A stretch of 24,368 nt of DNA from positions 1 to 24,368 of IMG/VR virus record IMGVR_UViG_3300009161_000223; one strand, 5' to 3'. This document shows, piece after piece, positions 8,314-24,368 of the stretch (its first letter is position 1; the number at the start of each line of letters is the position of its first letter). The stretch is from a virus (taxonomy: Duplodnaviria > Caudoviricetes). Under the pieces are notes generated by a model that made no database searches, was not told where the DNA came from, and saw only the letters and a list, made by a program, of their open reading frames with translations. The translations under genes were made by a program, and so were the position numbers.

Positions 8314-10833
8314 TTATCCGTTAAATGCTGCTCCAGTTGGTAAGATGTTGAAATCAATTTGAATGAATTCAGCGGTTCTTGTTGGTTGTAAGTAGATAGC
8401 ACCTTTCATAATGTTTCTATCAATTACATCTGGAGTATTATTAGAATCGTCCATTACAACACGGAATGCGTACAAACCTTGTCTTTGTTGGATTGATTCT
8501 AAATAAGGGTTAACAATATTTAAAAATCTGTTTCTTGTTTCTGCTGTGTTTTGTTCGAATACTAAGTATCTTGAAGTAGATGCGATGTATTTTCTTACAG
8601 TTAATAATAATCTTCTTACATTGATTCTATCTAATGCAGATGGTTTATCTTGTAAAGTTTTTTGACCGAATACTACGATACCTTGTCCTGGGAATTGAAC
8701 GATTGGATTTACCTTTCCTTCATATAGAGTATCTTTTTCAGACTGAGTTAATCTATTCAATACACTAACTGCTCCTACTAAACCACCTCTATTCAAACCT
8801 GCTGGTGCGAACCACTCAGCTGCTACTCTATCGTTTGCTGCGAATACGCCAGGTAATAATACTGAAGGTGGAACTGAAATTAATTTGTTTGTATTAACAT
8901 CAATTGTCTTAACCCATGGGTAGTAAGTTGCTGTCATATTTGAATCTATTGCGTCTGCTTGTGTTGTAGCTTGTGAAATTGAATCATCCGCTGCATTTGT
9001 ATCCATAATATAGAAACAATCATCTCTTTGTTCAACCATATCTAAAACTGAAGTTACTACTGAAGTGTGATGTCTTCTAATAACACCTGGAGTTACAACC
9101 ATATTGATATCAAATTCGTCAGCGTTAGATAATGCAGATATGTGTTTACCATAAGCTACCGAACCTGAAGATAATGAAGTTGATAAATTAAATCCTTGTG
9201 AGTTACCTGCAATTATATTTGTTCCAGTATAAATTGGAGTTGTTGGATTCATACCATCAAATCCTTCTTGGAATGCTACAACAAATTGTGCATTTGCATC
9301 ACCTACTGATAATGTACCACCATTTGTTGCGTCTAAACCAAATACTGAATTAGAACCTATACCTGCTCCTGTTGGAATTGCTTTAATATAAATTGAGTTA
9401 TCAGTATTACCATCTAAATCAATACCACCAACTACAGTTGCTGAAGAACTTACAAATGTTACTGCAGGAACCAATGCTCCTACACCAGCTGATGCTGAAA
9501 TAGGTAATTGATATGCTGCGTGTGCAAATGGAACTGCTTGAACTGGTGCTGATTCATTTAAGTTTTTAATTCTAATATATTTTGAATTATTAACCCAATC
9601 TCCTGTTTCAGAAATTTTACCATCTGATGCGATTGTTCTTTTTCTATCACCAATTACTCTACTAATATAGTTTGGTGAGTTAGGGTCTAAGTTTACATTA
9701 GAATAAGTTTCTAATACATTTTTCTTTTTGTTTGTGTCAGAATATCCTCTTACAACTAATGTGAATGTACCATAATCTGTACCATTTACACTACCTGCTG
9801 CTTTAATATTTGTAATACCAATTTTAACTTTTGTATTTGCTGTATTTCCTGCACCAATCGTTTCAATTTGGAACAGATTGTATCTATCACCGGAAATTGT
9901 TTGAGATTTGATATATGGAGTTACTGCTTCTTGTGCATCAAATGTAAATAATTGGTCACCTAATAATGTTAAAGATTGAGTTGCAAATGCGTTTAATGAT
10001 ACGGAATGGTTATTAAATAAACCATATACATATGCACCCTTAGCTCCGATTGCAGATGTGCCAAATGTTGATTCGATATCGTTTGTATCTTCAGAATCTA
10101 CCGATGATGTTCCTGCAAAGTTTGTTGAACCTGTTATACTAACAATGAAATCTCCGTTAGATAATGATGTCAATATTGAACCACTCAATCCTGTTGTTAA
10201 TGTATTTTTATCACTAGGGAATAAAATACCTACTGATGCAGATGCTGCTAAATCTCCATTTATTAATATGGATACAGATGAACTACCAGCTCCTTGTGTT
10301 GCAGATTGTGATACATATACATTGGTAGGTAATACTTTACAACCATTACCAAATTCAGTTAATGAAACGGCTGTAACAATACCGGCTGTAATAGTCGCTG
10401 TTGCAGTTGGTTGAGTAGTATTAAATGTACTACCTTCAAATATTAAATTAGCCGTACCAGTTGTTGTATTATTTGATGCGGTATAACCACTACCTCCTGA
10501 TATTAATGATAACGATGTAATTTGTCCTTTATTTGTAGAATTTATTAGTAAAGGATTTTGTGCAGTATATCCACCGATACCTGCTACTCTACAAATAGTT
10601 GCAGTTCCAGCTTCTCTTAAATATGATTGTACTGCTAAAGGAGTATAATATGTGTCATCTACTACTCCGTATAATGTTTCAAATTCAGCTTGTGAATTTA
10701 CAATTGTTGGTACTAATGGGCCTTCTTTGAAAGGGCCTATGAATGCTGCTCCGATGTCAGCTACACCTTGTTGTAAGAATGAAAGGTCGTTTTCTTTTGT
10801 AAATACGCCTGGTGATACTATCTTTTCTGCCAT
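8314..10833 (-). CDS. gp18: Contractile tail sheath protein (T4 gp18-like)
   Basis: 839 aa: N-terminal VSPGVFTKENDLS...AFIGPFKEGP; C-terminal YYPWVK, WFAPAGLNRG, GQKTLQDKPSALDRINVRRLL and LQPTRTAEFIQIDF. Confidence 0.96.
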   Translation of the reverse strand: MAEKIVSPGVFTKENDLSFLQQGVADIGAAFIGPFKEGPLVPTIVNSQAEFETLYGVVDDTYYTPLAVQSYLREAGTATICRVAGIGGYTAQNPLLINSTNKGQITSLSLISGGSGYTASNNTTTGTANLIFEGSTFNTTQPTATATITAGIVTAVSLTEFGNGCKVLPTNVYVSQSATQGAGSSSVSILINGDLAASASVGILFPSDKNTLTTGLSGSILTSLSNGDFIVSITGSTNFAGTSSVDSEDTNDIESTFGTSAIGAKGAYVYGLFNNHSVSLNAFATQSLTLLGDQLFTFDAQEAVTPYIKSQTISGDRYNLFQIETIGAGNTANTKVKIGITNIKAAGSVNGTDYGTFTLVVRGYSDTNKKKNVLETYSNVNLDPNSPNYISRVIGDRKRTIASDGKISETGDWVNNSKYIRIKNLNESAPVQAVPFAHAAYQLPISASAGVGALVPAVTFVSSSATVVGGIDLDGNTDNSIYIKAIPTGAGIGSNSVFGLDATNGGTLSVGDANAQFVVAFQEGFDGMNPTTPIYTGTNIIAGNSQGFNLSTSLSSGSVAYGKHISALSNADEFDINMVVTPGVIRRHHTSVVTSVLDMVEQRDDCFYIMDTNAADDSISQATTQADAIDSNMTATYYPWVKTIDVNTNKLISVPPSVLLPGVFAANDRVAAEWFAPAGLNRGGLVGAVSVLNRLTQSEKDTLYEGKVNPIVQFPGQGIVVFGQKTLQDKPSALDRINVRRLLLTVRKYIASTSRYLVFEQNTAETRNRFLNIVNPYLESIQQRQGLYAFRVVMDDSNNTPDVIDRNIMKGAIYLQPTRTAEFIQIDFNILPTGAAFNG

Positions 10834-10904: not shown

Positions 10905-12632
10905 TTATTTGTATGTTGGAGAGAAATAATCGTATACTTGTCCTACTGATGCTGCTGATTGTAATGTGTTATAGAATAATACAGGTCCAATTTGTCCGTT
11001 CCAGAATGTTGTTCTTGCACTATTACTACCAATTGTTAAATAGTTTGTTGATGCTGGTGCCGTAAATGCTGCTGCGGTAAATGTTCCTACCGATGTTTTA
11101 TCTACATAAACCGTTACAGTTCCTGATGGTTGGAATGTTGCTGAAATCATATACCAAACATTTGCTGATAATGAAGTCGTTAATTGTGCACTATTTCCTA
11201 ATGTACTACCATAGAATTTTACTCTATTTAAAGTAGAACTATCTGATGATTCAATTGCCAAACCATAAAATCCTGCGTAGTCAAAAATGTGTCTTGTAGT
11301 TGTACCTAATGTTGTAGTAGGTCTTACCCACATATGGATTGTACCTGAAGTAGTATTAAATTGTGAAATACCACCATTAATATTTGTAGTAGTATCTTTA
11401 TACCAGAATTGAGTTGTACCATTTGCACTCCAAGATTTTTCTTTTCTACCTACACCATTATTATAAGATGGGTTACCACCTGTAATACTTGCTGCGTTTG
11501 TTACACCTGCAGGTCTTACACCGGTATTATATCCACTCATATCTAACCAATCTGCCGTTGCAGTACCTGCCGTAGATGATGCCTTTGATGGGTCAACATA
11601 CATTCTTAATCCTGCAGATGGAATATATGGTTGAGTTTCTGTTCCTTTGTTGTGAGATATAATACCATTTGCTAAATATACATCGGCATTTTCAACATTG
11701 AGTGTTACAATCTCAACATCAGCAGTTACTACTTCAATATTAATTACTTCGACTTCATTTAATCCGTTGGTTTCATCATATGTTATTACTAAATCTCCAG
11801 GTAATACATCTTCTATATTTTTAAAATGATATTTTTGAATTTCATTATCCCAAACCCAAAGAGGGTGAGTTCCAGTTGCTTTAATTAAACCATTGTTTAA
11901 ATCATAATATCCACTTGCAAAGTTGAATACAACATCTGATACAATTACTTCTTGATGTGTACCTGATTGGTTTTCTAACATATAAAATCTCCAATCAACA
12001 TTTTCACTATCCATATCTTGTGACTCATCTGGTAATCCTGTTGGAACCCATGCTTTAATTGAATCACCTACTGAGATATCTTCAACATTGACAATACTAC
12101 CATCTGCTTTAGTTATTTTTGTACCAAATAATAAACAGAAGTCAGGTTGGTTAATAGTATTATAAACATCTACTGCGTATAATGTTTTAGTATATGCAGT
12201 TCCGTAGTTTGTTGCGGCAGTATTATAACCATCCTGATATTTCATCGTTAAAATTGAACTAGCTTCCGAATAGTTTGCTGCTGCAACTGCTGCAGGTGTT
12301 AAAGGAACTATGGTTGGGCCTGTTCCAAATGTTCTAGTTCCTGCTGTAAAGTTTACATTATCAAATGAACAAGTATAATTGTTTGCAACTTGTTGAACTT
12401 TGGAATAAAATAAAGAACCTGTTGAACTAAACGAAAATTGTGCATTTTCAGTTGTACTTTCTACTACATAAGTAAAAGTTGGAACTGTTACTGTAATAGA
12501 ATCGGTTGCAAATCCTAATAATGAACTATTTGCAGTGTTGCCACCCAAACCACCAATTGAAACTGTTCCTGGTCTCGCTGAACCACTTACTGCTCTGTAT
12601 AAATTTCCTAACGATAAATTTGTTCTTGCCAT
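10905..12632 (-). CDS. Putative virion protein with a central Hint (intein-like) domain and a C-terminal LamG/concanavalin A-like domain
   Basis: 575 aa. Hint domain at aa 166-328 (CLLFGTKITKADG...TGTHPLWV...VYLANGIISHN). C-terminal part has GLRMYVDPS, GTIHMWVRP, WYMISATF, VTVYVDKT and LTIGSN...FWNGQIGPVLFYNTLQS, typical of LamG-like folds. Confidence 0.85.
   Translation of the reverse strand: MARTNLSLGNLYRAVSGSARPGTVSIGGLGGNTANSSLLGFATDSITVTVPTFTYVVESTTENAQFSFSSTGSLFYSKVQQVANNYTCSFDNVNFTAGTRTFGTGPTIVPLTPAAVAAANYSEASSILTMKYQDGYNTAATNYGTAYTKTLYAVDVYNTINQPDFCLLFGTKITKADGSIVNVEDISVGDSIKAWVPTGLPDESQDMDSENVDWRFYMLENQSGTHQEVIVSDVVFNFASGYYDLNNGLIKATGTHPLWVWDNEIQKYHFKNIEDVLPGDLVITYDETNGLNEVEVINIEVVTADVEIVTLNVENADVYLANGIISHNKGTETQPYIPSAGLRMYVDPSKASSTAGTATADWLDMSGYNTGVRPAGVTNAASITGGNPSYNNGVGRKEKSWSANGTTQFWYKDTTTNINGGISQFNTTSGTIHMWVRPTTTLGTTTRHIFDYAGFYGLAIESSDSSTLNRVKFYGSTLGNSAQLTTSLSANVWYMISATFQPSGTVTVYVDKTSVGTFTAAAFTAPASTNYLTIGSNSARTTFWNGQIGPVLFYNTLQSAASVGQVYDYFSPTYK
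11649..12137 (-). other. Hint domain, 163 aa, no homing endonuclease
   Basis: Cys1 codon at 12135-12137, block-B TxxH (TGTH), terminal His-Asn at 11649-11654; the next residue is Lys. Confidence 0.85.
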
Positions 12633-12643
12633 AGTATAAAGTG

Positions 12644-13642
12644 TTATTCTCCGTTATAAATATCTAAAAGTTTTTGTTTCCACTCATCTTTATTAGAAAA
12701 GTTTTTAATCATCCAATTTTTAAGTTTTTCAAATTCTGCTTTACGGGTTTCGTAATCATCCTGACAAATTGTTTCGTAGGTTTTTTTAAATGTTTCCTCA
12801 TCAATCGCTTTGTACTTATAGTCAAGTGGAACATGCCATGTTTCATGTAATATTGGTAATTTACCCCAATCGACTGCTTCAAATATTCCATATCCAAATG
12901 GTTCATATTCAAAACAAGAATGAGATATTCCCCAATCAAGTCCATAGAACTTTTCTTTATATTTGTAATCAAACTTGTAAATTTTTGATTTCTCAAATTT
13001 GTATCCATATTTCTTTTTGTAATATTTGTTGAATGTTTCTGAATTAGTAGAAATGTATCCACCTAACCCATTCATATATTCAACATTCTTTCTACCTTCA
13101 ACTCTTGCTGCGTATCCTAATTCTATTGAGTTTGAAAGTTCGTTGTTTTGTATAAATCTATAATTATTTGGTATATGATGTAAGTTTTCTGTTTGATATG
13201 GAAAATGATATAATCCTACCCAAATTTTATTTTTTATTTTATTTATTAATTCTGTTTCCCATTCCCAATTTCCGTACCAATGTAAATATTCATCTTTTCC
13301 CATTTGTGCCATTAAAGACACCTTTGTAAGATTATGAAACACAATGGAATCAATCCTTTCTAAATTGTTGTGAACTGCAGTAGTTGGGGTGTAATGACCA
13401 TGTAATATATGTATTTTTCTTGCACCTTTAAGAATTTCATCAATTTTTAACTCGTTGGTTTCCCAAATATGGTCTATGTCAATTGGAAATTCTTCGTAAT
13501 TTGTAGGTTTGTGTCTATGGAAAAGAAGAAGTGGCTTAACATTTAAGTTAGGTGCCACTTCTTTTATCCAATTAGTTACCCATATATCAGCTCCACTATT
13601 GAACCAGGGTCCTCCTGCGGTAGTGTAGTATACATCGTACAT
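12644..13642 (-). CDS. Glycosyltransferase, GT-B fold (GT4-like)
   Basis: 332 aa: N-terminal SGADIWV (GG-x-E-like loop), IHILHGHY, YAARVEGRKN and the E-x7-E motif EPFGYGIFEAVDWGKLPI. Confidence 0.8.
   Translation of the reverse strand: MYDVYYTTAGGPWFNSGADIWVTNWIKEVAPNLNVKPLLLFHRHKPTNYEEFPIDIDHIWETNELKIDEILKGARKIHILHGHYTPTTAVHNNLERIDSIVFHNLTKVSLMAQMGKDEYLHWYGNWEWETELINKIKNKIWVGLYHFPYQTENLHHIPNNYRFIQNNELSNSIELGYAARVEGRKNVEYMNGLGGYISTNSETFNKYYKKKYGYKFEKSKIYKFDYKYKEKFYGLDWGISHSCFEYEPFGYGIFEAVDWGKLPILHETWHVPLDYKYKAIDEETFKKTYETICQDDYETRKAEFEKLKNWMIKNFSNKDEWKQKLLDIYNGE
12655..12663 (-). promoter_or_regulatory. Putative late promoter ATATTTATA inside the 3' end of the glycosyltransferase gene
   Basis: Formed by codons GAT ATT TAT AAC (DIYN), 22 nt upstream of the Hint-protein ATG. 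Confidence 0.65.
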
Positions 13643-13663
13643 CTATTATAAACCTTTTGAATA

Positions 13664-15628
13664 TTATTTAGACTTGCAATTATCGCATTTACATTCGTAA
13701 TTTTCTAAATCTATTCTTAATTTTTCTATTTGTGTTTGTTGTTCTTTAATACCTTCAATTAATAATGCTACTAATTTATCGTATTTAACTGCTTTGTATC
13801 CTGTTTCTCTTGTTGTTACTAATTGTGGTAATACTGCTTCAATTTCTTGTGCAATAACACCGACATCATTTCCTTCAAAACCATGGAACTCTTTCATGTC
13901 TGCTTTCCAATCATAAGTGTTACCACTAATCATTCTGATTTTTTCTATTGGATTTTCGATTGGAGTAATATTCTCTTTAAAGTTTATATCTGATGTAGAG
14001 TATGCTACAACATCACCACTTGCGTCAATTCTACCCGCAGTTGCTGATGCTGCCATACCAATACCCAATGAGTTAAATCTAACATCGGATGTAGTCAATA
14101 AGTTTTGGTTAATAACTGTACCATATCCAGTTGTTGAACTTAAAGTTACTTGTGCTGAACCACTTACTATTCCTGCTGGGATAGAAGAGATACTTGCGTA
14201 TGTAATTTGAGATGAACCTGATACTAAGTTTGGTATTGTTATATTTGCAGAACCATCAAATGAAGTTCCGTTAATAGTTCTTGCATTTTGTAAGGTAGTT
14301 GCAGTTGATGCATTACCTGTCAATGCTCCGGTAAATCCTGTTGAAGTTACTGAAGTTAAACCTGCTAATGAAGTAGATGTTCCACCTAATGCAGTTGATG
14401 TTGAACCGATTGTAATAGTATTTGTAGTAATTGCAGAACCAACTACTTGTGATGAACCCGAAATAACTGTATTAGAGTTTAATTGAGTTTTGATACCAGT
14501 AGACCAGTTTGTAGTTGCAGTTGCATCAATTTGTGATGAACCAGATACTATACCTGATGGGATAGATGAGATACTTGCGTAAGTTATTTGAGATGAACCA
14601 CTTACTGTACCTGTTGGTAAGTTTGCAATTGTTTGTGAAGAACCTGAAACTACACCGGTTGGTAATAATGCTGGTATTTGAGTTGAACTCGAAACTACTG
14701 AATCACCACCTACTCTTAATATTGCTAATTCACTTCCTTTAGCACCTGCTATCCATCTATCGTTTGTAGTATCCCATAACATAGAACCTGTTGCTGTATT
14801 TCCACCTGCCGCATCTTTAACATACATACCACCATTTGTAGTAAGTGTTCCGTTTAATACTATAATATTGTCACCAATGTTTATATTTGTTGAGTCAATT
14901 GTTGTTGTTGTACCATTTACTACAAAATCACCACCTACTGTTAAACCAGTTGTTGTAGTAAGTGAACCTGTAATTGCTACATTATTTCCAAATTGAATTG
15001 CATTACCACCTGAAGATGTTATTTTATTACCATCTTGAACTTGTACCGTTCCTTTAAGTGATATAACACCCGTAGTTGGGTCTAAAACTACATCTCCACC
15101 ACCTGATGATGCAAATGTAAGATTTCCGTCTGCAGTTTGTAATGTAATTGTGTCAGCAGAAGTTTCTAATAATTTTAAAGATTGTCCTGTGTCAGTTGTT
15201 AATTGTAAGTCATTTGCGGTTGACGAAAGAATTGCTGTACCATTCATATATAATGAACCGGTAGAAATATATAAGTGTCTCCATTGTTTAGAAGGAGAAC
15301 CCAAATCGAATGTATTAGTTAATGAAGGAATTATAGATGAACTTAAATTTGCGGTCATTGCTACAGTATCGGATGTATTATCACCGATTGTAATGTTACC
15401 ACCTAATGTTAAGTTACCATCAATTTTTGCGTTTCCTGTGATGTCTAATGAAGAACCTGAAATACCAGCGAATGTAGCTGCACTTCCTGTTCCTGATGCT
15501 CCTAGTGTAATATCACCAGTTGCTCCACCTACTTGTAATGTTCCTAAGTCTGTGTTTATGTATGGTTCTCCGAATGCTAACGAACCGGATTTCTGTGCGG
15601 TGGTACCGCGTCTAAATTTAAGTCCCAT
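13664..15628 (-). CDS. Tail fibre protein with a C-terminal peptidase S74 intramolecular chaperone
   Basis: 654 aa: N-terminal LKFRRGTT...LAFGEPYIN, VSGSSQ repeats, ATTLQNARTINGTSFDGSANITI fibre motif, then STSDINFKENI...GVIAQEIEAVLP...VKYDKLVALLIEGIKEQ. Confidence 0.9.
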   Translation of the reverse strand: MGLKFRRGTTAQKSGSLAFGEPYINTDLGTLQVGGATGDITLGASGTGSAATFAGISGSSLDITGNAKIDGNLTLGGNITIGDNTSDTVAMTANLSSSIIPSLTNTFDLGSPSKQWRHLYISTGSLYMNGTAILSSTANDLQLTTDTGQSLKLLETSADTITLQTADGNLTFASSGGGDVVLDPTTGVISLKGTVQVQDGNKITSSGGNAIQFGNNVAITGSLTTTTGLTVGGDFVVNGTTTTIDSTNINIGDNIIVLNGTLTTNGGMYVKDAAGGNTATGSMLWDTTNDRWIAGAKGSELAILRVGGDSVVSSSTQIPALLPTGVVSGSSQTIANLPTGTVSGSSQITYASISSIPSGIVSGSSQIDATATTNWSTGIKTQLNSNTVISGSSQVVGSAITTNTITIGSTSTALGGTSTSLAGLTSVTSTGFTGALTGNASTATTLQNARTINGTSFDGSANITIPNLVSGSSQITYASISSIPAGIVSGSAQVTLSSTTGYGTVINQNLLTTSDVRFNSLGIGMAASATAGRIDASGDVVAYSTSDINFKENITPIENPIEKIRMISGNTYDWKADMKEFHGFEGNDVGVIAQEIEAVLPQLVTTRETGYKAVKYDKLVALLIEGIKEQQTQIEKLRIDLENYECKCDNCKSK

Positions 15629-15678
15629 TTTAGTTTACTCTTTTTTTTAGTTAAAGTATAAGAAATTCCTTATACCTT

Positions 15679-15687
15679 TATAAATAT
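15679..15687 (-). promoter_or_regulatory. Putative late promoter ATATTTATA
   Basis: Immediately after the TAG at 15688-15690 and 50 nt upstream of the ATG at 15628. Confidence 0.7.
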
Positions 15688-15978
15688 CTATTTGTTTTCT
15701 AATTCCTTTACTTTTGCTGATAATTCTTTTATAGATTCTATTAAAAGTGGAATTATTTTTTCATAATCAACTGCCTTATATCCATTTTCTCTATTTACAA
15801 CAACTTGTGGAAGAACTTTTTCTATTTCTTGTGCTATAACTCCAACATCGTTTCCTTTGTGAGAATGTATTTCTTCGAATCCTTCTTTCCAATCATATGT
15901 GTTACCACTAATAGATTCAACTTTTGATAATGCGTTTTCTATTGGAACAATATTTTCTTTTAATCTAACATCGGATGA
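15688..15978 (-). pseudogene. In-frame peptidase S74 chaperone domain cut off from 15979..17922 by one TAA
   Basis: Same frame continues for 96 codons: SSDVRLKENIVPIENALSKVESISGNTYDWKEGFEEIHSHKGNDVGVIAQEIEKVLPQVVVNRENGYKAVDYEKIIPLLIESIKELSAKVKELENK-TAG (15688-15690); no in-frame ATG. Confidence 0.9.
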
Positions 15979-17922
15979 TTAAAATGCTGTAATATCATTA
16001 ATTGCTCTAATTTCACCTGCTACTGCAGTTGCCGCAGTTCCAACTCCAATTGAATTAAATTGTACGTTTGCAGATGTGTGAATATCTTGTGGTGTCGAAA
16101 GAGTTACGTCTGCACTTTCTAATCCTGAACCTGCTACTGTAATTTGATTTGCAGTACCTGTAATTGTTTGAATGTAATTGCCAGTAGTATGTGTTCCTAA
16201 TGTTATTGCGTTTGAGGTTATTACTTGAGACGAACCCGATACAACTCCCGTTGGTAATAATGCAGGTATTTGTGCTGCTCCACTTACTATTCCAGATGGG
16301 ATAGAACTAATACTTGTATATGTAATTTGTGAAGAACCCGAAACTACTCCTGTTGGTAAGTTTTCAATTATTTGTGCAGAACCTGATATAGTTCCTGCTG
16401 GTACAGATGAAGAACTTATAAATCCTAATGTAGTTATTTGTGCAGAGCCTGATATAGTTCCTGCTGGTGCAGTTCCACTTGCTACAACTGTTAAATCAAA
16501 TGTTGAACCATTACCTTTAGTGAATGTTAATACATTTATATTTACACTAGCAGTTACTAATGAACTTGCAGTTACAGATGAACTTACAAATCCAAATGTA
16601 GTTATTTGTGCAGAACCACTTAATGTACCTGTTGGTAAGTTTTCGATTGTTTGTGCAGAACTACTCACTACACCCGTTGGTAATAATGTAATTACTTGTG
16701 TCGAACCACTTACTATACCTGCTGGAATAGAACTGATGTTTGCGTATGTAATCTGTGAAGAACCGGAAACAATTCCCGTTCCACCTAATACTTGTGTAGA
16801 ACCACTTACTGTACCCGTTGGTAATAATGTAATTACTTGTGTCGAAGCACTTACTATACCTGCTGGAATAGAACTAATACTTGTATATGTAATTTGTGAA
16901 GAACCGGAAACAATTCCCGTTCCACCTAATACTTGTGAAGAACCACTTACTATTCCTGAAGGTATTGATGAAATACTTGCGTATGTAATTTGTGTTGAAC
17001 CACTCACTACACCATTGTTTGCATTTATTGTTCCGTTAAATGATGTTGCAGTTGAAGAACCTATTGTTGTAATTGAACCACTAATTTTGACTGAACCTGT
17101 GAAGTCATGTACATCATTACCAAAATCTCCAAATCTATTAGAACCACTACTGAATATGACAGATGCCGTTTCATTTACGGTTGTCAAATTTACTACTGTT
17201 AAATTTTCAATAGATGTGTTATTCAATTGAGAACTACCACTTATAATACCTCTACCAGTTGTTTCATATCTTATATCATATGAAGATGTTAATTGTGATG
17301 AACCACTTACTACTCCCGTTGGTAATAATGGAGTTACTTGTACAGAACCACTAACTATACCTGCTGGAATAGAACTAATACTTGTATATGTAATTTGTGA
17401 AGAACCACTCACTACACCCGTTGGTAATAATGGAATAACTTGTGCAGAACCACTTACTATACCTGCTGGAATAGAACTAATACTTGTATATGTTATTTGT
17501 GACGAACCTGATACTACACCATTTGTTGCTGCTATTGCTCCTGATATAGATGTTGCATATACATTTCTATATACTTTAGATGTCGAACCTAAATCGTATG
17601 TATTAGTTGCATCAGGTATAATTGAAGAACTTAAATCTGCATTAAAAATAACACTATCATTTGTAGTATCACCAATTGTAATCGTTCCACCTAATACTAC
17701 ATTGCCCGATACATATAAGTTTGAAGCAGTAATATCTCCGGATGCAGATATTCCACCTTTCAAATATAATGAACCTGTATTTAGTTCATCTAATTTTGCT
17801 AAAGTAATTTCTCTATCACCTACCGCATATTGTAATGAGTCAGGACCTTTGTTTACATATAATTCACCATCCTCTAATGATACTGAACCTGAACCTCTTC
17901 TAATTTGAAATATAGCTGCCAT
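15979..17922 (-). CDS. Tail fibre protein, Ser/Gly-rich repeats, ending at an apparently premature TAA
   Basis: 647 aa: N-terminal IFQIRRGSG...LEDGELYVN and many VSGSxQ repeats. Ends GEIRAINDITAF*, which aligns with GRIDASGDVVAY just before the S74 domain of the 654-aa paralogue. Confidence 0.85.
   Translation of the reverse strand: MAAIFQIRRGSGSVSLEDGELYVNKGPDSLQYAVGDREITLAKLDELNTGSLYLKGGISASGDITASNLYVSGNVVLGGTITIGDTTNDSVIFNADLSSSIIPDATNTYDLGSTSKVYRNVYATSISGAIAATNGVVSGSSQITYTSISSIPAGIVSGSAQVIPLLPTGVVSGSSQITYTSISSIPAGIVSGSVQVTPLLPTGVVSGSSQLTSSYDIRYETTGRGIISGSSQLNNTSIENLTVVNLTTVNETASVIFSSGSNRFGDFGNDVHDFTGSVKISGSITTIGSSTATSFNGTINANNGVVSGSTQITYASISSIPSGIVSGSSQVLGGTGIVSGSSQITYTSISSIPAGIVSASTQVITLLPTGTVSGSTQVLGGTGIVSGSSQITYANISSIPAGIVSGSTQVITLLPTGVVSSSAQTIENLPTGTLSGSAQITTFGFVSSSVTASSLVTASVNINVLTFTKGNGSTFDLTVVASGTAPAGTISGSAQITTLGFISSSSVPAGTISGSAQIIENLPTGVVSGSSQITYTSISSIPSGIVSGAAQIPALLPTGVVSGSSQVITSNAITLGTHTTGNYIQTITGTANQITVAGSGLESADVTLSTPQDIHTSANVQFNSIGVGTAATAVAGEIRAINDITAF
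16672..16951 (-). repeat. Near-identical 141-bp tandem duplication (47 aa) in a fibre gene
   Basis: acccgttggtaataatgtaattacttgtgtcgaa...accacttact at 16672-16810 and 16813-16951, with a handful of mismatches. Confidence 0.9.
17315..17508 (-). repeat. 102-bp tandem duplication (34 aa) in a fibre gene
   Basis: cccgttggtaataatgga... begins at 17315 and again at 17417; both copies encode QITYTSISSIPAGIVSGSxQVxPLLPTG. Confidence 0.85.
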
Positions 17923-17941
17923 TTAATTCTTTTATGTTTCT

Positions 17942-17950
17942 TATAAATAT
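17942..17950 (-). promoter_or_regulatory. Putative late promoter ATATTTATA
   Basis: 19 nt upstream of the ATG at 17922. Confidence 0.7.
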
Positions 17951-17971
17951 AGTAATATCTTTTTTCTTTTA

Positions 17972-20410
17972 TTATAGTCCGCCTGCAGTCAATCTCTCTT
18001 TCAATGTGTCGTTTTCTGCTTTTAATTCTTGGATTGCTTTAACTAAATATAAACTTAAATTGGATAAATTTGTATCATAGTAATCAATATCATCTCTTTT
18101 AATTGTGCCCACCATATCAGGGAATACTTCCATTAATTCTTGTGCTATAAATCCTGATATTCTTCTTTCTCTTGTTGCTTCGTCAAAACCAGATAATTCA
18201 TTGTAGTTATATGTTACAGGTCTAATTGCACAAATCTTATCCAATACATTAGTTACTACCAAATCAGTAATATTTTCTTTTAACCTTGAGTCTGACCAGT
18301 TTGTCCAAGCAGTATAACCATTTGCACCCGGTTGGCCATTCAGGTTTAGTTTATATCCAAAGTCAGTTGCAGTACCAATAGAAGTATTTCCACCAGAATT
18401 TGATTGTAATCTTAATACATTTGCATCTATATTTAACATTGCAAAAGTATTAGCTGCATCATTTACTGCACTTATACCTGCTTGGCCACCTTCTTGTGAT
18501 ATTCTTATATTTTGATTAGTAGCAGTTTTAACAGTCAAATTGCCTGTTGGGTTATTTGTATTAATTCCGACTTTGCCATCCGTTGCTAAATATAATTGAT
18601 AATCTGTTCCACTTGCTCTTATTTCTAAAGGATTATAAGCTGATATTGCACTATTTAATCCTACTACGGAAGCATATGTTGCATTATCTGTTATAAAAAT
18701 ACCTTTGTTATTAGTTCCGTTTACATATGCAGAACCAGATACTCCAAATTTATAGTTTGCAGATGTTGCCAATCTATTAACACTTACATTACTACTAAAT
18801 GTAGCTGGGCCAGTTACTATAAATTTATCTGAAGTTATTGTTGCAGTTGTTGTATCGTTACTTTGTCCATCAAGTACAATAGAGGCATTACCATATGCAC
18901 CATTACTTTCTAATCTTAATTGTCTTGCAGCACCATTTGATGAAATTCTTTGGAAATAAGTTCCACTAAAATATCTTTCCCAAATTGTTCTTGTATCACT
19001 CTCCCATGGCATGTTTATAAAAGAACCATTAGCAAATTCTAAACTACCACTCATTGTTTGATTACCTGTTGTTGTAATTGAACCACTAATTTTGACTGAA
19101 CCTGTAAAACTATGTATATCATCACCAAAATCTCCAAACCTATTAGAACCACTACTAAATAAAACACTTGCAGTTTCATTAACTGTTGTTAAGTTTGTAA
19201 TAGTTAAATTTGTAATAGTTGCGTTTTCTAATTGTGCAGAAGAACTTATAATTCCGGTTCCACCTAAAACTTGTATTGAACCTGAAACTGTACCCGTTGG
19301 TAATAATGGAGTTACTTGTGATGAACCACTTACTATTCCTGCTGGTATAGAAGAAATACTTGCGTAAGTGATTTGAGATGAACCACTAACTATACCTCTG
19401 CCTTTTGTTTCGTAACTTCCTGTTACAGATTCTATTGTTGTTAATCTTGTGCTTTGTGCAGTATTAGTAGTATCGTTTGAACCCGTATAAGTGTTTAAAG
19501 AGTTTAATATACTAACTACTTGTGACGAACCTGATACTACTCCCGTTGGTAATGCTCCTGCAATTGAAGATGTTGCAACTGCGTATGATACTCCACTACC
19601 ATTACCTACCCAAGTATATCCTTGTTGTAAAGATGATGTGAATGTTGTATTTGTATAAAAACTTTGTGAACTAATACTACCAACATATCTATCGTCTACT
19701 ACAAAATCAATAGAACGTGATGTTGGATATATAACAGTTGTATCTCCTAAATTAGATAATCCACCAACAAAGTGAATTGGACTTCCAACTGTTTCTACAT
19801 CTCCAAAATTAAGATTATATCCTAAACTTGCACTATTGAAATCTCCAAAAGTTGGGTCATCAACATTAAAGTCAAATGCGTTAGGGAATACATATGTTCC
19901 TTGTGCTCCACCTGCTGCAAGGTCTGTTCCATTTAAATATAATGAACCGGTTACATTAACTGAACCTGTGAATTGATGTGTATCGTCTAATGTATTACCA
20001 AATCTAGAACTACCACTTTCGAAAAGGACAGATGAAGAAATTACTGAAATATTGAATTGTCTTGCATTAACTGCTCCTAATATAGTTAAGTCGTTTGTTA
20101 CTAATGCCGACCCACTCATTATTGTTTCACCGTGATTGACAGTAAGTGTATCGTTTACTTTTAGAGAACCAAATGAAGCGGTTAGGGTTGTTCTTATTGA
20201 CTCTGCTGTCAATGCTCCTGTAATAGTTATGGAGCCTGTGTTTGTTACATTTGTTGTTATTACTTCTTGGACTGTATCTGTCGAACCTGAACGTCTAAAA
20301 AATATCTTACCATCGTAAGTATTTAATGCTAATTCTCCTAAATTAAGGGAACCCGTACCAGGTACCTTACCCGATAACGCAGAGCGTTTGAGTTGAACAG
20401 TTTGTGCCAT
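17972..20410 (-). CDS. Tail fibre protein with a C-terminal peptidase S74 chaperone
   Basis: 812 aa: N-terminal VQLKRSALSGKVP...LGELALNTYDGKIF, VSGSSQ repeats, GKVGINTNNP, then WSDSRLKENI...GFIAQELMEVFP...LVKAIQELKAEN. Confidence 0.9.
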   Translation of the reverse strand: MAQTVQLKRSALSGKVPGTGSLNLGELALNTYDGKIFFRRSGSTDTVQEVITTNVTNTGSITITGALTAESIRTTLTASFGSLKVNDTLTVNHGETIMSGSALVTNDLTILGAVNARQFNISVISSSVLFESGSSRFGNTLDDTHQFTGSVNVTGSLYLNGTDLAAGGAQGTYVFPNAFDFNVDDPTFGDFNSASLGYNLNFGDVETVGSPIHFVGGLSNLGDTTVIYPTSRSIDFVVDDRYVGSISSQSFYTNTTFTSSLQQGYTWVGNGSGVSYAVATSSIAGALPTGVVSGSSQVVSILNSLNTYTGSNDTTNTAQSTRLTTIESVTGSYETKGRGIVSGSSQITYASISSIPAGIVSGSSQVTPLLPTGTVSGSIQVLGGTGIISSSAQLENATITNLTITNLTTVNETASVLFSSGSNRFGDFGDDIHSFTGSVKISGSITTTGNQTMSGSLEFANGSFINMPWESDTRTIWERYFSGTYFQRISSNGAARQLRLESNGAYGNASIVLDGQSNDTTTATITSDKFIVTGPATFSSNVSVNRLATSANYKFGVSGSAYVNGTNNKGIFITDNATYASVVGLNSAISAYNPLEIRASGTDYQLYLATDGKVGINTNNPTGNLTVKTATNQNIRISQEGGQAGISAVNDAANTFAMLNIDANVLRLQSNSGGNTSIGTATDFGYKLNLNGQPGANGYTAWTNWSDSRLKENITDLVVTNVLDKICAIRPVTYNYNELSGFDEATRERRISGFIAQELMEVFPDMVGTIKRDDIDYYDTNLSNLSLYLVKAIQELKAENDTLKERLTAGGL

Positions 20411-20460
20411 TTGGCTAAGTCTTTAAAGTTATCTAACAAAAATGTAGTATATACTACGAA

Positions 20461-20469
20461 CATAAATAT
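20461..20469 (-). promoter_or_regulatory. Putative late promoter variant ATATTTATG
   Basis: One mismatch; just after the terminator and 50 nt upstream of the ATG at 20410. Confidence 0.6.
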
Positions 20470-20474
20470 AATAT

Positions 20475-20504
20475 AAAAAGAAAAACCCCTACTATGAGGG
20501 GTTT
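20475..20504 (-). terminator. Rho-independent terminator after the 182-aa gene
   Basis: 8-bp stem AAACCCCT (20483-20490) / AGGGGTTT (20497-20504), 6-nt loop, then TTCTTTTT on the minus strand. Confidence 0.8.
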
Positions 20505-20525
20505 CTATTATAATTTTATTTACTA

Positions 20526-21074
20526 TTAAAGTTCTCCTGCATCTGGACCGAATGATGCTGAAAATTCTAAATTGAATAATCTTGTTGCTACTGAACCACT
20601 AAATGCTAATACATCACCGATTCCGTAAAGAGAACCACTAAATCCTTGTGCAGTTGTGATAGTTGCGATTGTTACATCGTTATATCTAAAATCAACTGAA
20701 CTTGTTGTAGTTGCTACTTTGTAAAGAGAACCACTACCTTGAATATATCCGATTGTTCCTGCAAATGGGTCAGAATTAAAATCAAAATCATCTGGTCTCA
20801 TTGATGCGGTTACACCTGTCAATGCTCCACCATAACCTGCAAAGGCTGATGCGGTTACTGCTCCACTAAGATTGATTGAACCTGTTGTGTTTGCTCCGGT
20901 AACTACGATTTCTACTACCTCATCGGTTGAACCTGATTTGTGTAAAAATGCTTTACCATCATAGGTATTTAATGCTATTTCACCTACTTGTAACGTTCCG
21001 GTTGTTGGTTTTGAACCTGCGACACCCGAGCGTTTTAATAAAATTGATGAAGTTGGTTGATTAGGTAATGCCAT
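20526..21074 (-). CDS. Short fibre-associated (adaptor-like) protein
   Basis: 182 aa. N-terminus ILLKRSGVAGSKPTTGTLQVGEIALNTYDGKAFLHKSGSTDEVVEIV is clearly paralogous to the N-terminus of 17972..20410; ends PDAGEL. Confidence 0.8.
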   Translation of the reverse strand: MALPNQPTSSILLKRSGVAGSKPTTGTLQVGEIALNTYDGKAFLHKSGSTDEVVEIVVTGANTTGSINLSGAVTASAFAGYGGALTGVTASMRPDDFDFNSDPFAGTIGYIQGSGSLYKVATTTSSVDFRYNDVTIATITTAQGFSGSLYGIGDVLAFSGSVATRLFNLEFSASFGPDAGEL

Positions 21075-21106
21075 AATATATTTTTATTTATTCTTTCTTT
21101 TTGTTA

Positions 21107-24100
21107 TTAATATGTTCCTCCGTCTATTGTTGTGAATGAAGTTGCTATTGAACTACTAAATGTACTAAATCCGGTAGTTGCTGTTATATTAACTTGTATT
21201 GAACCACTTACTACTGTTTCTGTATTTAATTTAGTTTTAACTCTTGCATCTGTATAGTAAAGGTTTGTTCCTTCTGCTACATCCGTAGTATTAAATCCTG
21301 TGAAGTCCGCATCGTTTAATACAATTTGTGAAGAACCACTTACTAATCCTGCAGGTTTACCAACTATATTTGCAAAAGTTGGAGCTCCCGCTGCAACCGA
21401 TGCACTTATTGATGTTGCAATTGAACTACTAAATGTTGTATAGTTAGTTGTTGAAGTAATATCAACTTGTGACGAACCACTTACTATTCCTGCTGGGATA
21501 GAAGAGATACTTGTATAAGTTATTTGAGAACTACCACTTACTGTACCTGTTGGTAATAATGATATTACTTGTGATGAACCACTTACTACCGAATCTCCAT
21601 TTTGTCTTAATAATTTACTTTCAGCTCCCAATGCTCCTGCTTTCCAGTAATCATTAGTTACATCCCAAAGTAAAGAACCAGATGTTGTTGAACCACCCGT
21701 TGCGTCTCTTACAACTAAACCACCATCAGATGTTCCAGCTGCATTTAATACTAATATATTATCTGCTAAGTTAATTGTGGTTGAGTCAACAACTGTTTGA
21801 GTACCTTGTACAAACAAATTACCTTTAATAGTTGTATCACCATTGAATGTTACATTGACACCACTTGCAGTAAATGCTGCAACTAATGATGAAGTATAGT
21901 TTCCTAAAGTTGTATTTTTACTTTCTTGTGAGGAAGTAAATGAATTTAAATTAGTTACTGAAATATTTACACTCGCTGATGTGCTTTCTAAATTTGTTAA
22001 TCTAGTTAAGTTTGAACCACTAACTACATTTAATGCATCTATACTAATTTGTTGAGAAGCAGAAGATGTATTTAGAGCCGATACTGAATTATTTACACTT
22101 GCGGATGTGCTTTCTAAGTTAGTTAATCTAGTTAAGTTTGAAGCACTTACCGTATTTAAAGATGATACTGAATTATTTACACTTGCCGAAGTTGCTTCTA
22201 AGTTTGTTAATCTACCTAAGTTTGAAGCACTTACCGTATTTAAAGCCGCAACTGAATTATTTAAACTTGCAGTTGTTGTGTTTATATTTGAAATCGAAAT
22301 ATTTACACTTGCTGATGTACTTTCTAAGTTTGTTAATCTACCTAAGTTTGAAGCACTTACCGTATTTAAAGATGATACTGAATTGTTTAAACTTGCAGTT
22401 GTACTTTCTAAGTTTGTTAATCTTCCGTCTGCAGATGCTGTAAATGCGTTTAAGGCAGTAGTTGAAGTATTTGAACTTGTATAACTATTTAAAGCATCTA
22501 TACTAATTTGTTGAGATGCCGATGAGCTATTCAAAGCCAATACTGAATTATTAACACTTGCTGAAGTTGCTTCAATATTTGTTAATCTTCCTAAAGTAGA
22601 ACCACTAAATGTATTTAAAGATGCAGATGTAACATTTAAAGCGTCAATGCTAATTTGTTGAGAAGCAGTTGATGTATTTAAAGCCGTTACTGAATTATTT
22701 ACACTTGCCGAAGTTGTTTCTAAATTACTTAATCTACCATTTGCAGATGCTGTAAATGCGTTTAAAGCAGTTGTTGAAGTATTTGAAGAAGTATAACTAT
22801 TTAAAGCGTCAATGCTAATTTGTTGAGAAGCAGAAGAAGTATTTAATGCCGTTACTGAATTATTTACACTTGCCGAAGTTGCTTCTAAGTTTGTTAATCT
22901 TCCTAAGTTTGAAGCACTTACTACGTTTAATGCATCAATGCTAATTTGTTGAGAAGCAGTTGAACTATTTAATGCTGTTACTGAATTATTTACACTCGCT
23001 GATGTACTTTCTAAATTTGTTAATCTACCTAAAGTAGAACCACTAAATGTATTTAAAGATGCAGATGTTACATTCAATGCATCAATACTAATTTGTTGAG
23101 ATGCAGTTGAACTATTTAATGATGTTACTGAATTATTTACACTTGCTGATGTACTTTCGATATTTGTTAATCTGCCTAATGTAGAAGAACTGAATGAATT
23201 TAAGTTTGTTATTGAAACTCCAACACCAGAACCTACATTTGCAACAATTGATGCTAATGATGCCGATACCGAACCACTATAATCACCAAATCCAGTTGTT
23301 GAAGTAATTGTAATTTGAGATGAACCACTTACTACTGAATCACCCTCTGCTCTTAATAATTTAGATTCAGAATTTAATGCTCCGGCCTTCCAATAGTCGT
23401 TTGTAGAATCCCAAAGTAAAGAACCACTTACCGTATTAGGTGCAGTTGGGTCTTTAACTAATAAACCACCATTTGCAACACCTGTACCATTTAATTCAAT
23501 TATATTATCTCCTAATTGAATCGTAGTAGAGTTTACTGCGGTTGTTGTTCCTGCTACTGTTAAGTTACCTGCTACTGATAAGTTACCATTTGCAGTTAAG
23601 TTTACACCACTTGCAGTTAATGCTTGAAGTAATGATGAAGTAAATGAATTTAAAGATGCTGATGAAACATTTAAAGCTGCTACTGAAGTATTTACACTTG
23701 CAGAAGTTGCTTCTAAGTTACTTAATCTAGTTAAATTTGAACCACTTACAACATTTAAAGCATCAATGCTAATTTGTTGAGATGCGGTTGATGTGTTTAA
23801 AGAAGTTACTGAATTATTTACACTTGCTGAAGTTGCTTCTAAATTACTTAATCTTCCGTTTGCAGAAGCAGTAAATGCGTTTAAGGCAGTTGTTGAAGTG
23901 TTTGAAGAAGTATAACTATTTAATGCGTCAATACTTATTTGTTGAGATGCTGAAGATGTATTTAAAGCAGTTACTGAATTATTAACACTTGCACTAAATG
24001 TATTTAATGAAGTTAATATACCAACTACTTGAGAAGAACCTGAAACTACTGTCTCAGTATCTAATTTAGTTTTAACTCTAGCATCTGTATAGTATAGTCT

Positions 24101-24368
24101 AGTTCCTTCACTTACATCATCGGTATTAAATCCTGTCTTATCTGCGTCATTTAATACAACTTGTGAAGAACCACTTACAATACCTGCAGGTTTACCATTT
24201 AAGTTTGCCCATGTAGATGCTGCAACTGATGCACTTATTGAAGTTGCAACTGATGCACTAAAGTTACTAATGTTACCCGTTAAATCTGGAATATCATTTC
24301 TGTCAGAACCAAGTAAGTATAAAGTTGAACTACCACTTGCGTAGTAAGGAACACCTTTAACTAAACCA
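21107..24368 (-). CDS. Long Ser/Thr/Asn-rich coiled-coil fibre protein, 5' end beyond the right edge
   Basis: Manual translation of 23078-24367 shows no stop, so the track start at 23077 is an internal TTG and the ORF is at least 1,086 aa. It has 14-aa repeats (RLTNLESTSASVNN / SVTALNTSSASQQI), VSGSSQ motifs, and ends IDGGTY. Confidence 0.88.
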   Translation of the reverse strand, partial: GLVKGVPYYASGSSTLYLLGSDRNDIPDLTGNISNFSASVATSISASVAASTWANLNGKPAGIVSGSSQVVLNDADKTGFNTDDVSEGTRLYYTDARVKTKLDTETVVSGSSQVVGILTSLNTFSASVNNSVTALNTSSASQQISIDALNSYTSSNTSTTALNAFTASANGRLSNLEATSASVNNSVTSLNTSTASQQISIDALNVVSGSNLTRLSNLEATSASVNTSVAALNVSSASLNSFTSSLLQALTASGVNLTANGNLSVAGNLTVAGTTTAVNSTTIQLGDNIIELNGTGVANGGLLVKDPTAPNTVSGSLLWDSTNDYWKAGALNSESKLLRAEGDSVVSGSSQITITSTTGFGDYSGSVSASLASIVANVGSGVGVSITNLNSFSSSTLGRLTNIESTSASVNNSVTSLNSSTASQQISIDALNVTSASLNTFSGSTLGRLTNLESTSASVNNSVTALNSSTASQQISIDALNVVSASNLGRLTNLEATSASVNNSVTALNTSSASQQISIDALNSYTSSNTSTTALNAFTASANGRLSNLETTSASVNNSVTALNTSTASQQISIDALNVTSASLNTFSGSTLGRLTNIEATSASVNNSVLALNSSSASQQISIDALNSYTSSNTSTTALNAFTASADGRLTNLESTTASLNNSVSSLNTVSASNLGRLTNLESTSASVNISISNINTTTASLNNSVAALNTVSASNLGRLTNLEATSASVNNSVSSLNTVSASNLTRLTNLESTSASVNNSVSALNTSSASQQISIDALNVVSGSNLTRLTNLESTSASVNISVTNLNSFTSSQESKNTTLGNYTSSLVAAFTASGVNVTFNGDTTIKGNLFVQGTQTVVDSTTINLADNILVLNAAGTSDGGLVVRDATGGSTTSGSLLWDVTNDYWKAGALGAESKLLRQNGDSVVSGSSQVISLLPTGTVSGSSQITYTSISSIPAGIVSGSSQVDITSTTNYTTFSSSIATSISASVAAGAPTFANIVGKPAGLVSGSSQIVLNDADFTGFNTTDVAEGTNLYYTDARVKTKLNTETVVSGSIQVNITATTGFSTFSSSIATSFTTIDGGTY
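21950..23210 (-). repeat. Coding repeat array with 42-bp (14-aa) period
   Basis: Recurring near-identical blocks such as aagtttgaagcacttaccgtatttaaag and actgaattatttacacttgc; a second shorter array lies at about 23640-24010. Confidence 0.9.

Follow-up and report, generated by a model that had tools for sequence, protein, structure and literature searches.

What does a glycosyltransferase (GT) predicted within the tail operon of a phage act on, and is it the enzyme that reads the short Ser/Thr tripeptides in which the neighbouring fibres abound? The question is raised by IMG/VR record IMGVR_UViG_3300009161_000223; the window analysed here is the entire 24-kb viral record (24,368 nucleotides), a fragment of its genome, and constitutes a myophage tail operon with every gene on the minus strand, in the order five fibre-type genes, the GT gene, a gene for a 575-amino-acid (aa) protein, sheath, tube, hub, a probable tape measure and baseplate genes. 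An earlier note on this DNA had proposed that the GT glycosylates the fibres, with [S/T]-[G/A/S]-S as its acceptor. The reading put forward here, to which we give an even chance, is that the predicted GT, inherited with a gene whose product carries a Hint domain, is likely a late accessory enzyme of virion glycosylation that works on or with this Hint protein, and is probably not the reader of the tripeptide tag.

The GT gene (12644..13642; like all window features given below, on the minus strand) forms a fixed pair with the gene downstream (10905..12632), which encodes the Hint protein. The collection of GT loci is redundant and most loci are drawn from three related clades; dereplicated sets comprised 67 loci for the late motif, 75 for the downstream genes and 123 sheaths. 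The gene after the GT encodes the Hint protein in 159/159 loci of clades 1 and 2 with more than 1.4 kb of downstream sequence (of 160), and a His-Asn-Lys junction is found in 220 of the 223 complete downstream genes, the exceptions being L472, L477 and the 235-aa L494; after dereplication it is present in 72/72, three of the 75 (L472, L477 and one with a partial GT) having been dropped. A full-length partner was detected in 5/5 GT-bearing and 0/16 GT-lacking records, and the GT-then-Hint order is kept in the distant loci L469-L471, whose GTs share 33-42% identity with the query P0121. The two Hint matches that rank next directly adjoin the GT paralogue of the complete relative G001 and the GT homologue of LR756508; among isolated phages no match to the Hint protein was found. 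Between pairs of loci, GT identity rises with partner identity (Spearman 0.85), a correlation that shared ancestry alone could give. The GT-Hint module is the new element of this analysis, and a literature search, with most subscription journals and bioRxiv supplements outside it, returned nothing on the GT family or on the pair.

The 575-aa partner, a presumed virion protein, consists of a conserved N-domain (residues 1-165), a Hint domain (residues 166-328; 11646..12137) of bacterial-intein-like (BIL) type and a variable tail, which in the window is a LamG domain (PF13385; 10944..11366), in clades 2 and 3 a shorter FN3-like beta domain as judged by eye, and in L469 lacks LamG. In the ESM Atlas the N-domain matches viral clusters only, with scores <0.9. 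The Hint fold features Cys1, block-B TxxH and terminal His-Asn are all present: C166, H256, H327-N328 and the +1 residue K329 are invariant, and T253 and D317 nearly so. Since the +1 residue is Lys in 50/50 aligned partners and never Cys, Ser or Thr, the domain is not a canonical intein. Its best sequence matches are Tetrahymena BIL2 (6tmm/6y75) and Clostridium BIL (2lwy), at E 5e-7 and with a fold Z of 17.9. The likeness to BIL domains thus covers Cys1, TxxH, His-Asn and the lack of a +1 Cys/Ser/Thr; unlike these, the window Hint is flanked by the N-domain and by LamG or the shorter beta domain rather than by ubiquitin-like domains, and it has the invariant +1 Lys and the tie to a GT. BIL2 makes a Lys isopeptide without ATP, according to the available text of PMC8616854. 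In the manner of BIL2, the Hint protein may process itself at Cys166. The thioester would be resolved by Lys329 or a different nucleophile, and the N-domain and LamG would thereby be released, or else ligated, within the tail.

A further fold match of the Hint domain is the Hedgehog domain 1at0 (Z 17.4), which, with the invariant Cys1 and block-B His and the tight GT-Hint linkage inside glycan clusters, brings in a Hedgehog-like ligation, in which the GT would help to build a glycan or a glycosylated small molecule that the Hint domain joins to the C-terminus of its own N-domain. We regard this as very unlikely: no conserved substrate-recognition domain follows the Hint domain, and the invariant His-Asn-Lys better fits the BIL2-type lysine chemistry, as far as that chemistry is covered in the accessible part of PMC8616854. 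A broader version, to which a low probability is given, treats the two genes as a ligation module in which the GT would supply a nucleophile carrying sugar, either a glycan or a glycosylated residue, for the Hint domain to couple to a tail protein without ATP, in Hedgehog style. If true, such a module would lay a second coating over the virion, added to that of an [S/T]-G-S sequon system shared by the whole lineage.

The position of the GT gene is consistent with a late function. Its start lies 21 nt past the end of the fibre gene 13664..15628, as the earlier note had it, and no late motif precedes it, which was also upheld. The late-promoter-like motif TATTTATA occurs in 7 copies on the coding strand of the window, none of them before the GT, and in the 67 dereplicated loci it is found 0 times within 60 nt 5' of the GT, 64 times at the GT 3' end (12655..12662 in the window, ahead of the Hint gene, where it may act as a promoter) and 66 times after the gene downstream of the GT. 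At the C-terminus of the GT, the codons for a conserved IYN coincide with the motif of the Hint gene. From this placement, fibres and GT probably share a transcript, and a separate start is probable for the Hint gene. The statement that the GT sits between the fibre array and the sheath held for the fibre side; on the other side the Hint-LamG gene comes next, and the sheath only after it.

As to the enzyme, the AlphaFold model (332 aa; pLDDT 88.5, pTM 0.86) has two Rossmann domains, i.e. a GT-B fold, and the E-x7-E motif reported from the sequence lies at E247-PFGYGIF-E255 (EPFGYGIFE; 12878..12904). In the structural classification that had been suggested as a check, GT4 enzymes fill the top Foldseek and VIA rows and T4 AGT ranks lower. 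The best VIA match is the GT4 enzyme tll1590 (6kih; Z 23.5, rmsd 3.9 over 320 residues), followed at Z 22 by HepE and by 6eji, which we take to be the chain-extending PglH of Campylobacter. Compared with the CAZy GT4 enzymes 6kih, HepE, 6eji, BshA and MshA, the GT agrees in its GT-B fold along the full chain (Z 21-23.5) and shares the positions of the Gly loop, the His, the Arg/Lys phosphate binders and E-x7-E, presumably the feature list of retaining GT4 enzymes; it differs in its 8-15% identity, in matching no Pfam GT and in its second Glu. Across the family the first Glu of the motif is invariant and the second position is E, Q or D; G17, E182, R184, K185 and E247 are identical in 27/27 diverse members, and H103 and R180 in 26/27. 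Catalytic roles were given to these residues by position, without superposition, and the conserved set would fit an active retaining enzyme.

No match to the GT was obtained in Pfam at E 0.1 (including PF00534, PF13692 and PF13439), PHROGs or NCBIfam, nor in sequence and profile searches of the PDB. Its homologues number 406 (187 representatives at 50% clustering); among isolated phages only LR756508 matches (E 1.5e-84), and a viral scan with the distant member P0126 returned no locus. A scan of 185,579 prokaryote genomes, which relied on one exact motif, found the GT in 4 loci only, all on short contigs of metagenome-assembled genomes with viral-looking neighbours. The GT is thus predicted to represent a distinct, previously unannotated, phage-specific family with a GT4-like GT-B fold. 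Its closest folds include the lipopolysaccharide and wall GT4 enzymes WaaG, HepE and TarM, as might be expected of an enzyme that modifies the host surface for receptor masking or superinfection exclusion; the late structural position of the gene and the lack of a cellular family (the 4 viral-looking loci) make such a role highly improbable.

Whether the GT reads the tag was addressed through the tripeptides themselves. Enrichment of [S/T]-[G/A/S]-S in all five upstream proteins was confirmed: observed counts and shuffled means, in gene order, are 67/26.2, 10/1.5, 25/7.0, 34/13.2 and 15/6.6, with 0, 0, 0, 0 and 1 of 500 shuffles each matching the observed value. Fibre 1 (21107..24368; 5'-truncated, at least 1086 aa, with coiled-coil-like repeats) has SGS 16 times against 2.8 expected and SAS 27 against 4.4; fibre-type protein 2 (20526..21074; 182 aa) accounts for the 10 against 1.5; fibre 3 (17972..20410; 812 aa, with an S74 chaperone) has SGS 11 against 1.3 and TGS 7 against 1.2; fibre 4 (15691..17922), built of VSGSSQ repeats, has SGS 20 against 2.5; and fibre 5 (13664..15628; 654 aa, with an Mtd_N-like start and an S74 chaperone) has SGS 8 against 1.1. 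Residue order matters in these fibres, with TGS 14 vs SGT 4 and TAS 19 vs SAT 1. The described saturation is largely a matter of repeats, however, the 22 VSGSSQ copies supplying much of the tripeptide count, and SAS is enriched solely in the first protein, itself without TGS.

The tag as a pure repeat artefact was ruled out by the sheaths. The window sheath (8314..10833) has 9 [ST][GAS]S against 4.1, and [ST]GS in its orthologues is 4.7-fold above expectation: the 123 dereplicated sheaths hold 577 [ST]GS against about 123 expected, spread over 96 alignment columns, of which the commonest is occupied in 53/123. Such turnover among the columns of a globular protein has the look of a signal, not of a repeat. 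The tag is not replaced by NGS in the sheaths.

The window tube is 62% identical to that of Mel-JY01, 48% to that of Flavobacterium phage immuto and 44% to that of Rhodothermus phage RM378. In 57/57 loci selected through an immuto or Mel-JY01 tube and extending 7 kb or more upstream, neither GT nor Hint was matched; the GT profile likewise matched 0/25 sister contigs, of which 3 are complete and the others 20-78% complete, and did not match immuto, Mel-JY01 or RM378. Yet the whole-proteome observed/expected ratio (O/E) of [ST]GS is 2.4-3.0 in the GT-lacking immuto, RM378, G004, G005 and G012, vs 2.4 in the GT-bearing G002. Most tag-enriched proteins are, to judge from gene position, structural, and in the other proteins O/E is near 1 (2.0 in RM378); structural regions of the unrelated myophages Melnitz, KVP40 and SP-15 give 1.11, 1.41 and 0.98. 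In sheaths, observed/expected [ST]GS is 233/43 and 156/35 in GT-lacking groups, and 95/22 and 86/22 in GT-bearing clades. In LR756508 a GT homologue is present and the tag is low (O/E 1.38). Taken by sequence, [S/T]-G-S behaves like a lineage-wide tag on virion proteins, and because sister phages without the GT carry the same tag, the window GT is probably not its reader. The Hint proteins are S/T-rich yet untagged (SGS 36/41, TGS 27/43, SAS 9/31, TAS 14/33, counted over the dereplicated set of 75 downstream genes, which includes two that encode other proteins).

The model of the earlier note, in which the GT would be the GtfA-like enzyme initiating glycosylation at [S/T]-[G/A/S]-S on the adjacent fibres, fares poorly in this comparison and is judged unlikely. 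In its favour are the S/T-rich gene found immediately upstream of the GT in 118/126 loci and the higher [ST]AS of two GT-bearing clades, at 3.4 and 3.2 in fibres (1.7 in the third clade; 1.5-1.7 without the GT) and at 90/25 and 50/20 in sheaths of GT-bearing clades vs 72/39 and 67/45 without the GT. Against it are the about equal strength of the tag without the GT, the LR756508 homologue that goes with little tag, the presence of another candidate enzyme, a tandem GT4 pair, in the window's own clade, and the absence of GtfA/GtfB structures among the fold matches listed for the GT, a list in which a true match need not appear. The co-variation that the note had itself proposed as a test speaks against this GT family as the reader, but not against GTs in general: similarly SGS-rich fibres and sheaths occur in related phages from which the family is missing. 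What stood of the proposed virion glycosylation is the full catalytic residue set, the probable co-transcription and the tag-like [S/T]-G-S; what did not is the reading of that tag by this GT. Beside this, G006 (L210), L209, L211 and L216 make up a sub-lineage with 0-1 [ST]GS per sheath, in which G006 keeps the GT4 pair; an unbiased tripeptide scan of G006 and LR756508 gave no clear substitute tag.

The tandem GT4 pair, located in the replication region, occurs in 5/5 complete IMG/VR genomes, in immuto, in Mel-JY01 and in the window's own clade (G030), with only its first gene in LR756508, and is a better candidate than the window GT as reader of [S/T]-G-S. Immuto DNA contains dA, dC, dT and fdPreQ1 by liquid chromatography-mass spectrometry, according to the available text of 10.1101/2023.04.13.536721, a nucleoside set that argues against the pair as a bulk DNA glycosylase. 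The pair would act in the host cytoplasm, initiating O-glycosylation at [S/T]-G-S, and the window GT, co-transcribed with the fibres, would transfer a sugar from a nucleotide-sugar donor to the S/T-rich, tag-free Hint protein or to a glycan at the fibre tip.

Several observations weigh against this reading. The step assigned to the GT4 pair is imperfect because of three exceptions: in G006 (74% complete) the pair is present but the tag is not (O/E 0.67, over 120 of 122 kb), in RM378 the first gene is accompanied only by a remote second, and in Mel-JY01 the first gene is split into two open reading frames (L187:555-2046). GT-bearing clades have a modest edge in fibre tagging, with [ST]GS O/E in S/T-rich fibres of 4.0-4.5 vs 3.2-3.3 without the GT, and with 96/121 vs 22/45 fibres tagged at least 3-fold. 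The L472 copy of the GT has no Hint gene, the Hint neighbour in LR756508 lies upstream of the GT homologue and is similar in the Hint domain only, and a Hint neighbour is found at 1/4 GT paralogues (G001 yes; G002, G028 and G029 no). Synteny in a conserved tail operon can, moreover, be hitchhiking, and proven DNA glycosyltransferases give the same fold matches as the GT.

The paralogues bear on another possibility, namely that the GT extends chains, adding the second or a later sugar to glycans primed at [S/T]-G-S all over the tail, with the Hint protein incidental. They stand first in clusters for glycan synthesis, most of them with no Hint gene beside them: in G002 the paralogue leads, behind baseplate and fibre genes, a nucleotide-sugar pathway (L170:13847 to L171:11502) with a methyltransferase, a GT2, two GT7-LamG fusions, a radical S-adenosylmethionine (SAM) enzyme, three epimerases, RmlC and split thiamine-pyrophosphate (TPP)-dependent E1 genes, suggesting, from gene content, branched-chain sugars; G001 (L173-L174) has the same layout by eye. 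G001 and G002 are complete at 276 and 289 kb. In L469-L471 it is the GT-Hint pair that heads a cluster with methyltransferase, radical SAM and/or GT7-LamG genes. The probable co-transcription of the GT with tagged fibres and the presence among its fold matches of HepE and of 6eji, presumably PglH, would also suit chain extension. As the GT is followed by the Hint gene at two distinct genomic locations and the presence or absence of GT and full-length partner agrees in 21/21 records, chain extension with an incidental Hint protein is considered rather unlikely.

The fold of the GT cannot tell its acceptor, since DNA arabinosyl- and glucosyltransferases yield the same fold matches: those of DLP3, RB69 and RL38J1 also match 6kih, BshA and 7fg9 in the accessible part of PMC13326640. 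A DNA glycosyltransferase acting on a modified pyrimidine has further points in its favour, as T4 AGT is among the Foldseek matches and the AGT cluster scores 0.97 in the ESM Atlas, level with the Glycos_transf_1 cluster, a look-alike at feature level. A divergent thymidylate-synthase homologue, moreover, occurs in 3/27 records, all GT-bearing and of clade 2 (G001, G002 and G031), with, by eye, an Asp at the position tied to deoxycytidine monophosphate (dCMP) preference in the text available of PMC13326640. In G002 (L452:9784-14054) it stands beside an asparagine-synthetase-like amidotransferase (by eye), a pyridoxal-phosphate-type enzyme and an ATPase, a candidate for a possibly undescribed cytosine-modification cluster. 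A Tet_JBP search gave 0/5 matches, and its positive control likewise gave none. The likeness to T4 AGT/BGT and to the DLP3 and RB69 arabinosyltransferases is one of fold class and overlapping fold matches; these enzymes rank below the GT4 cell enzymes, the GT has no PF11440-type profile match in Pfam, no linked base-hydroxylase gene was found in G030, a contig of the window's clade, and the GT lies with its Hint partner in a late tail operon, ~41 kb from the thymidylate-synthase homologue. Since that homologue is confined to clade 2, being absent from the syntenic stretch of the clade-1 contig G030 and from LR756508, a role of the GT on DNA stays quite improbable.

Virion glycosylation by phage enzymes has been proven in few phages. 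Mycobacteriophages Che8 and Rita are reported to use phage glycosyltransferases for it (Freeman et al. 2023 as cited in PMC11256854). In that comparison, made with the available text of PMC11256854, the likeness lies in phage-encoded glycosyltransferases with glycans proposed on virion proteins, and the difference in that mycobacteriophages belong to another phage lineage where the glycans are proven, whereas here they are proposed from genes; in the window, besides, the tag is a tripeptide scattered through the proteins, the GT is of an orphan family and a Hint protein goes with it.

GtfA/GtfB, which are GT4-type enzymes, glycosylate serine-rich repeat adhesins. The window resembles that system in the GT4-type fold, the adjoining Ser/Thr-rich fibrous proteins and the SAS-type repeats; in contrast to GtfA/GtfB, the window GT (332 aa) stands by itself, no GtfB-like protein being paired with it, its neighbours are a fibre and the Hint protein, and the tag occurs without it, so that the tandem GT4 pair would, by analogy, come closer to the GtfA/GtfB arrangement.

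A true member of the Aah/TibC O-heptosyltransferases (TIGR04414; 290 bits vs a cut-off of 200) is encoded with a GT4 within the fibre array of the relatives L072 (4481-6557) and L075, which indicates that protein O-glycosylation genes do occur there; the gene is sporadic among the relatives, and the window GT itself is unmatched by TIGR04414. The analysis thus separates the parts of what appears to be tag-directed virion glycosylation in a widespread aquatic myophage lineage: a lineage-wide tag, a GT4 pair as the better candidate reader, and a window GT family bound to a Hint protein. If true, a cytoplasmic O-glycosylation system with a short tag would be a useful tool for glyco-engineering.

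Further features of the lineage were noted. Fibre 4 of the window has an in-frame TAA (15979-15981, minus strand) that precedes and cuts off its S74-type chaperone segment; in the near-identical locus L001, whose GT is 100% identical, the gene is intact at 744 aa, and the TAA may reflect either a rare variant or a fault in the assembly. The last residues of fibre 1 are DGGTY (21107-21130), and the next genes (including 20526-21074) begin with KRSG, KRS or RRG segments. Swappable cassettes lie between fibre genes, with 2-oxoglutarate-Fe oxygenases, tetratricopeptide-repeat proteins, radical SAM enzymes and methyltransferases (L005:3960-7448, L013:2-2022, L027:605-5830), and in Mel-JY01 (L180:4750-8430) a 1226-aa GT4-to-GT9 fusion stands beside [ST]GS-rich genes. 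The host is presumably one of the Bacteroidetes, to judge from immuto and from the accessible part of PMC9723584, and bS21 is encoded by G001 and Mel-JY01.

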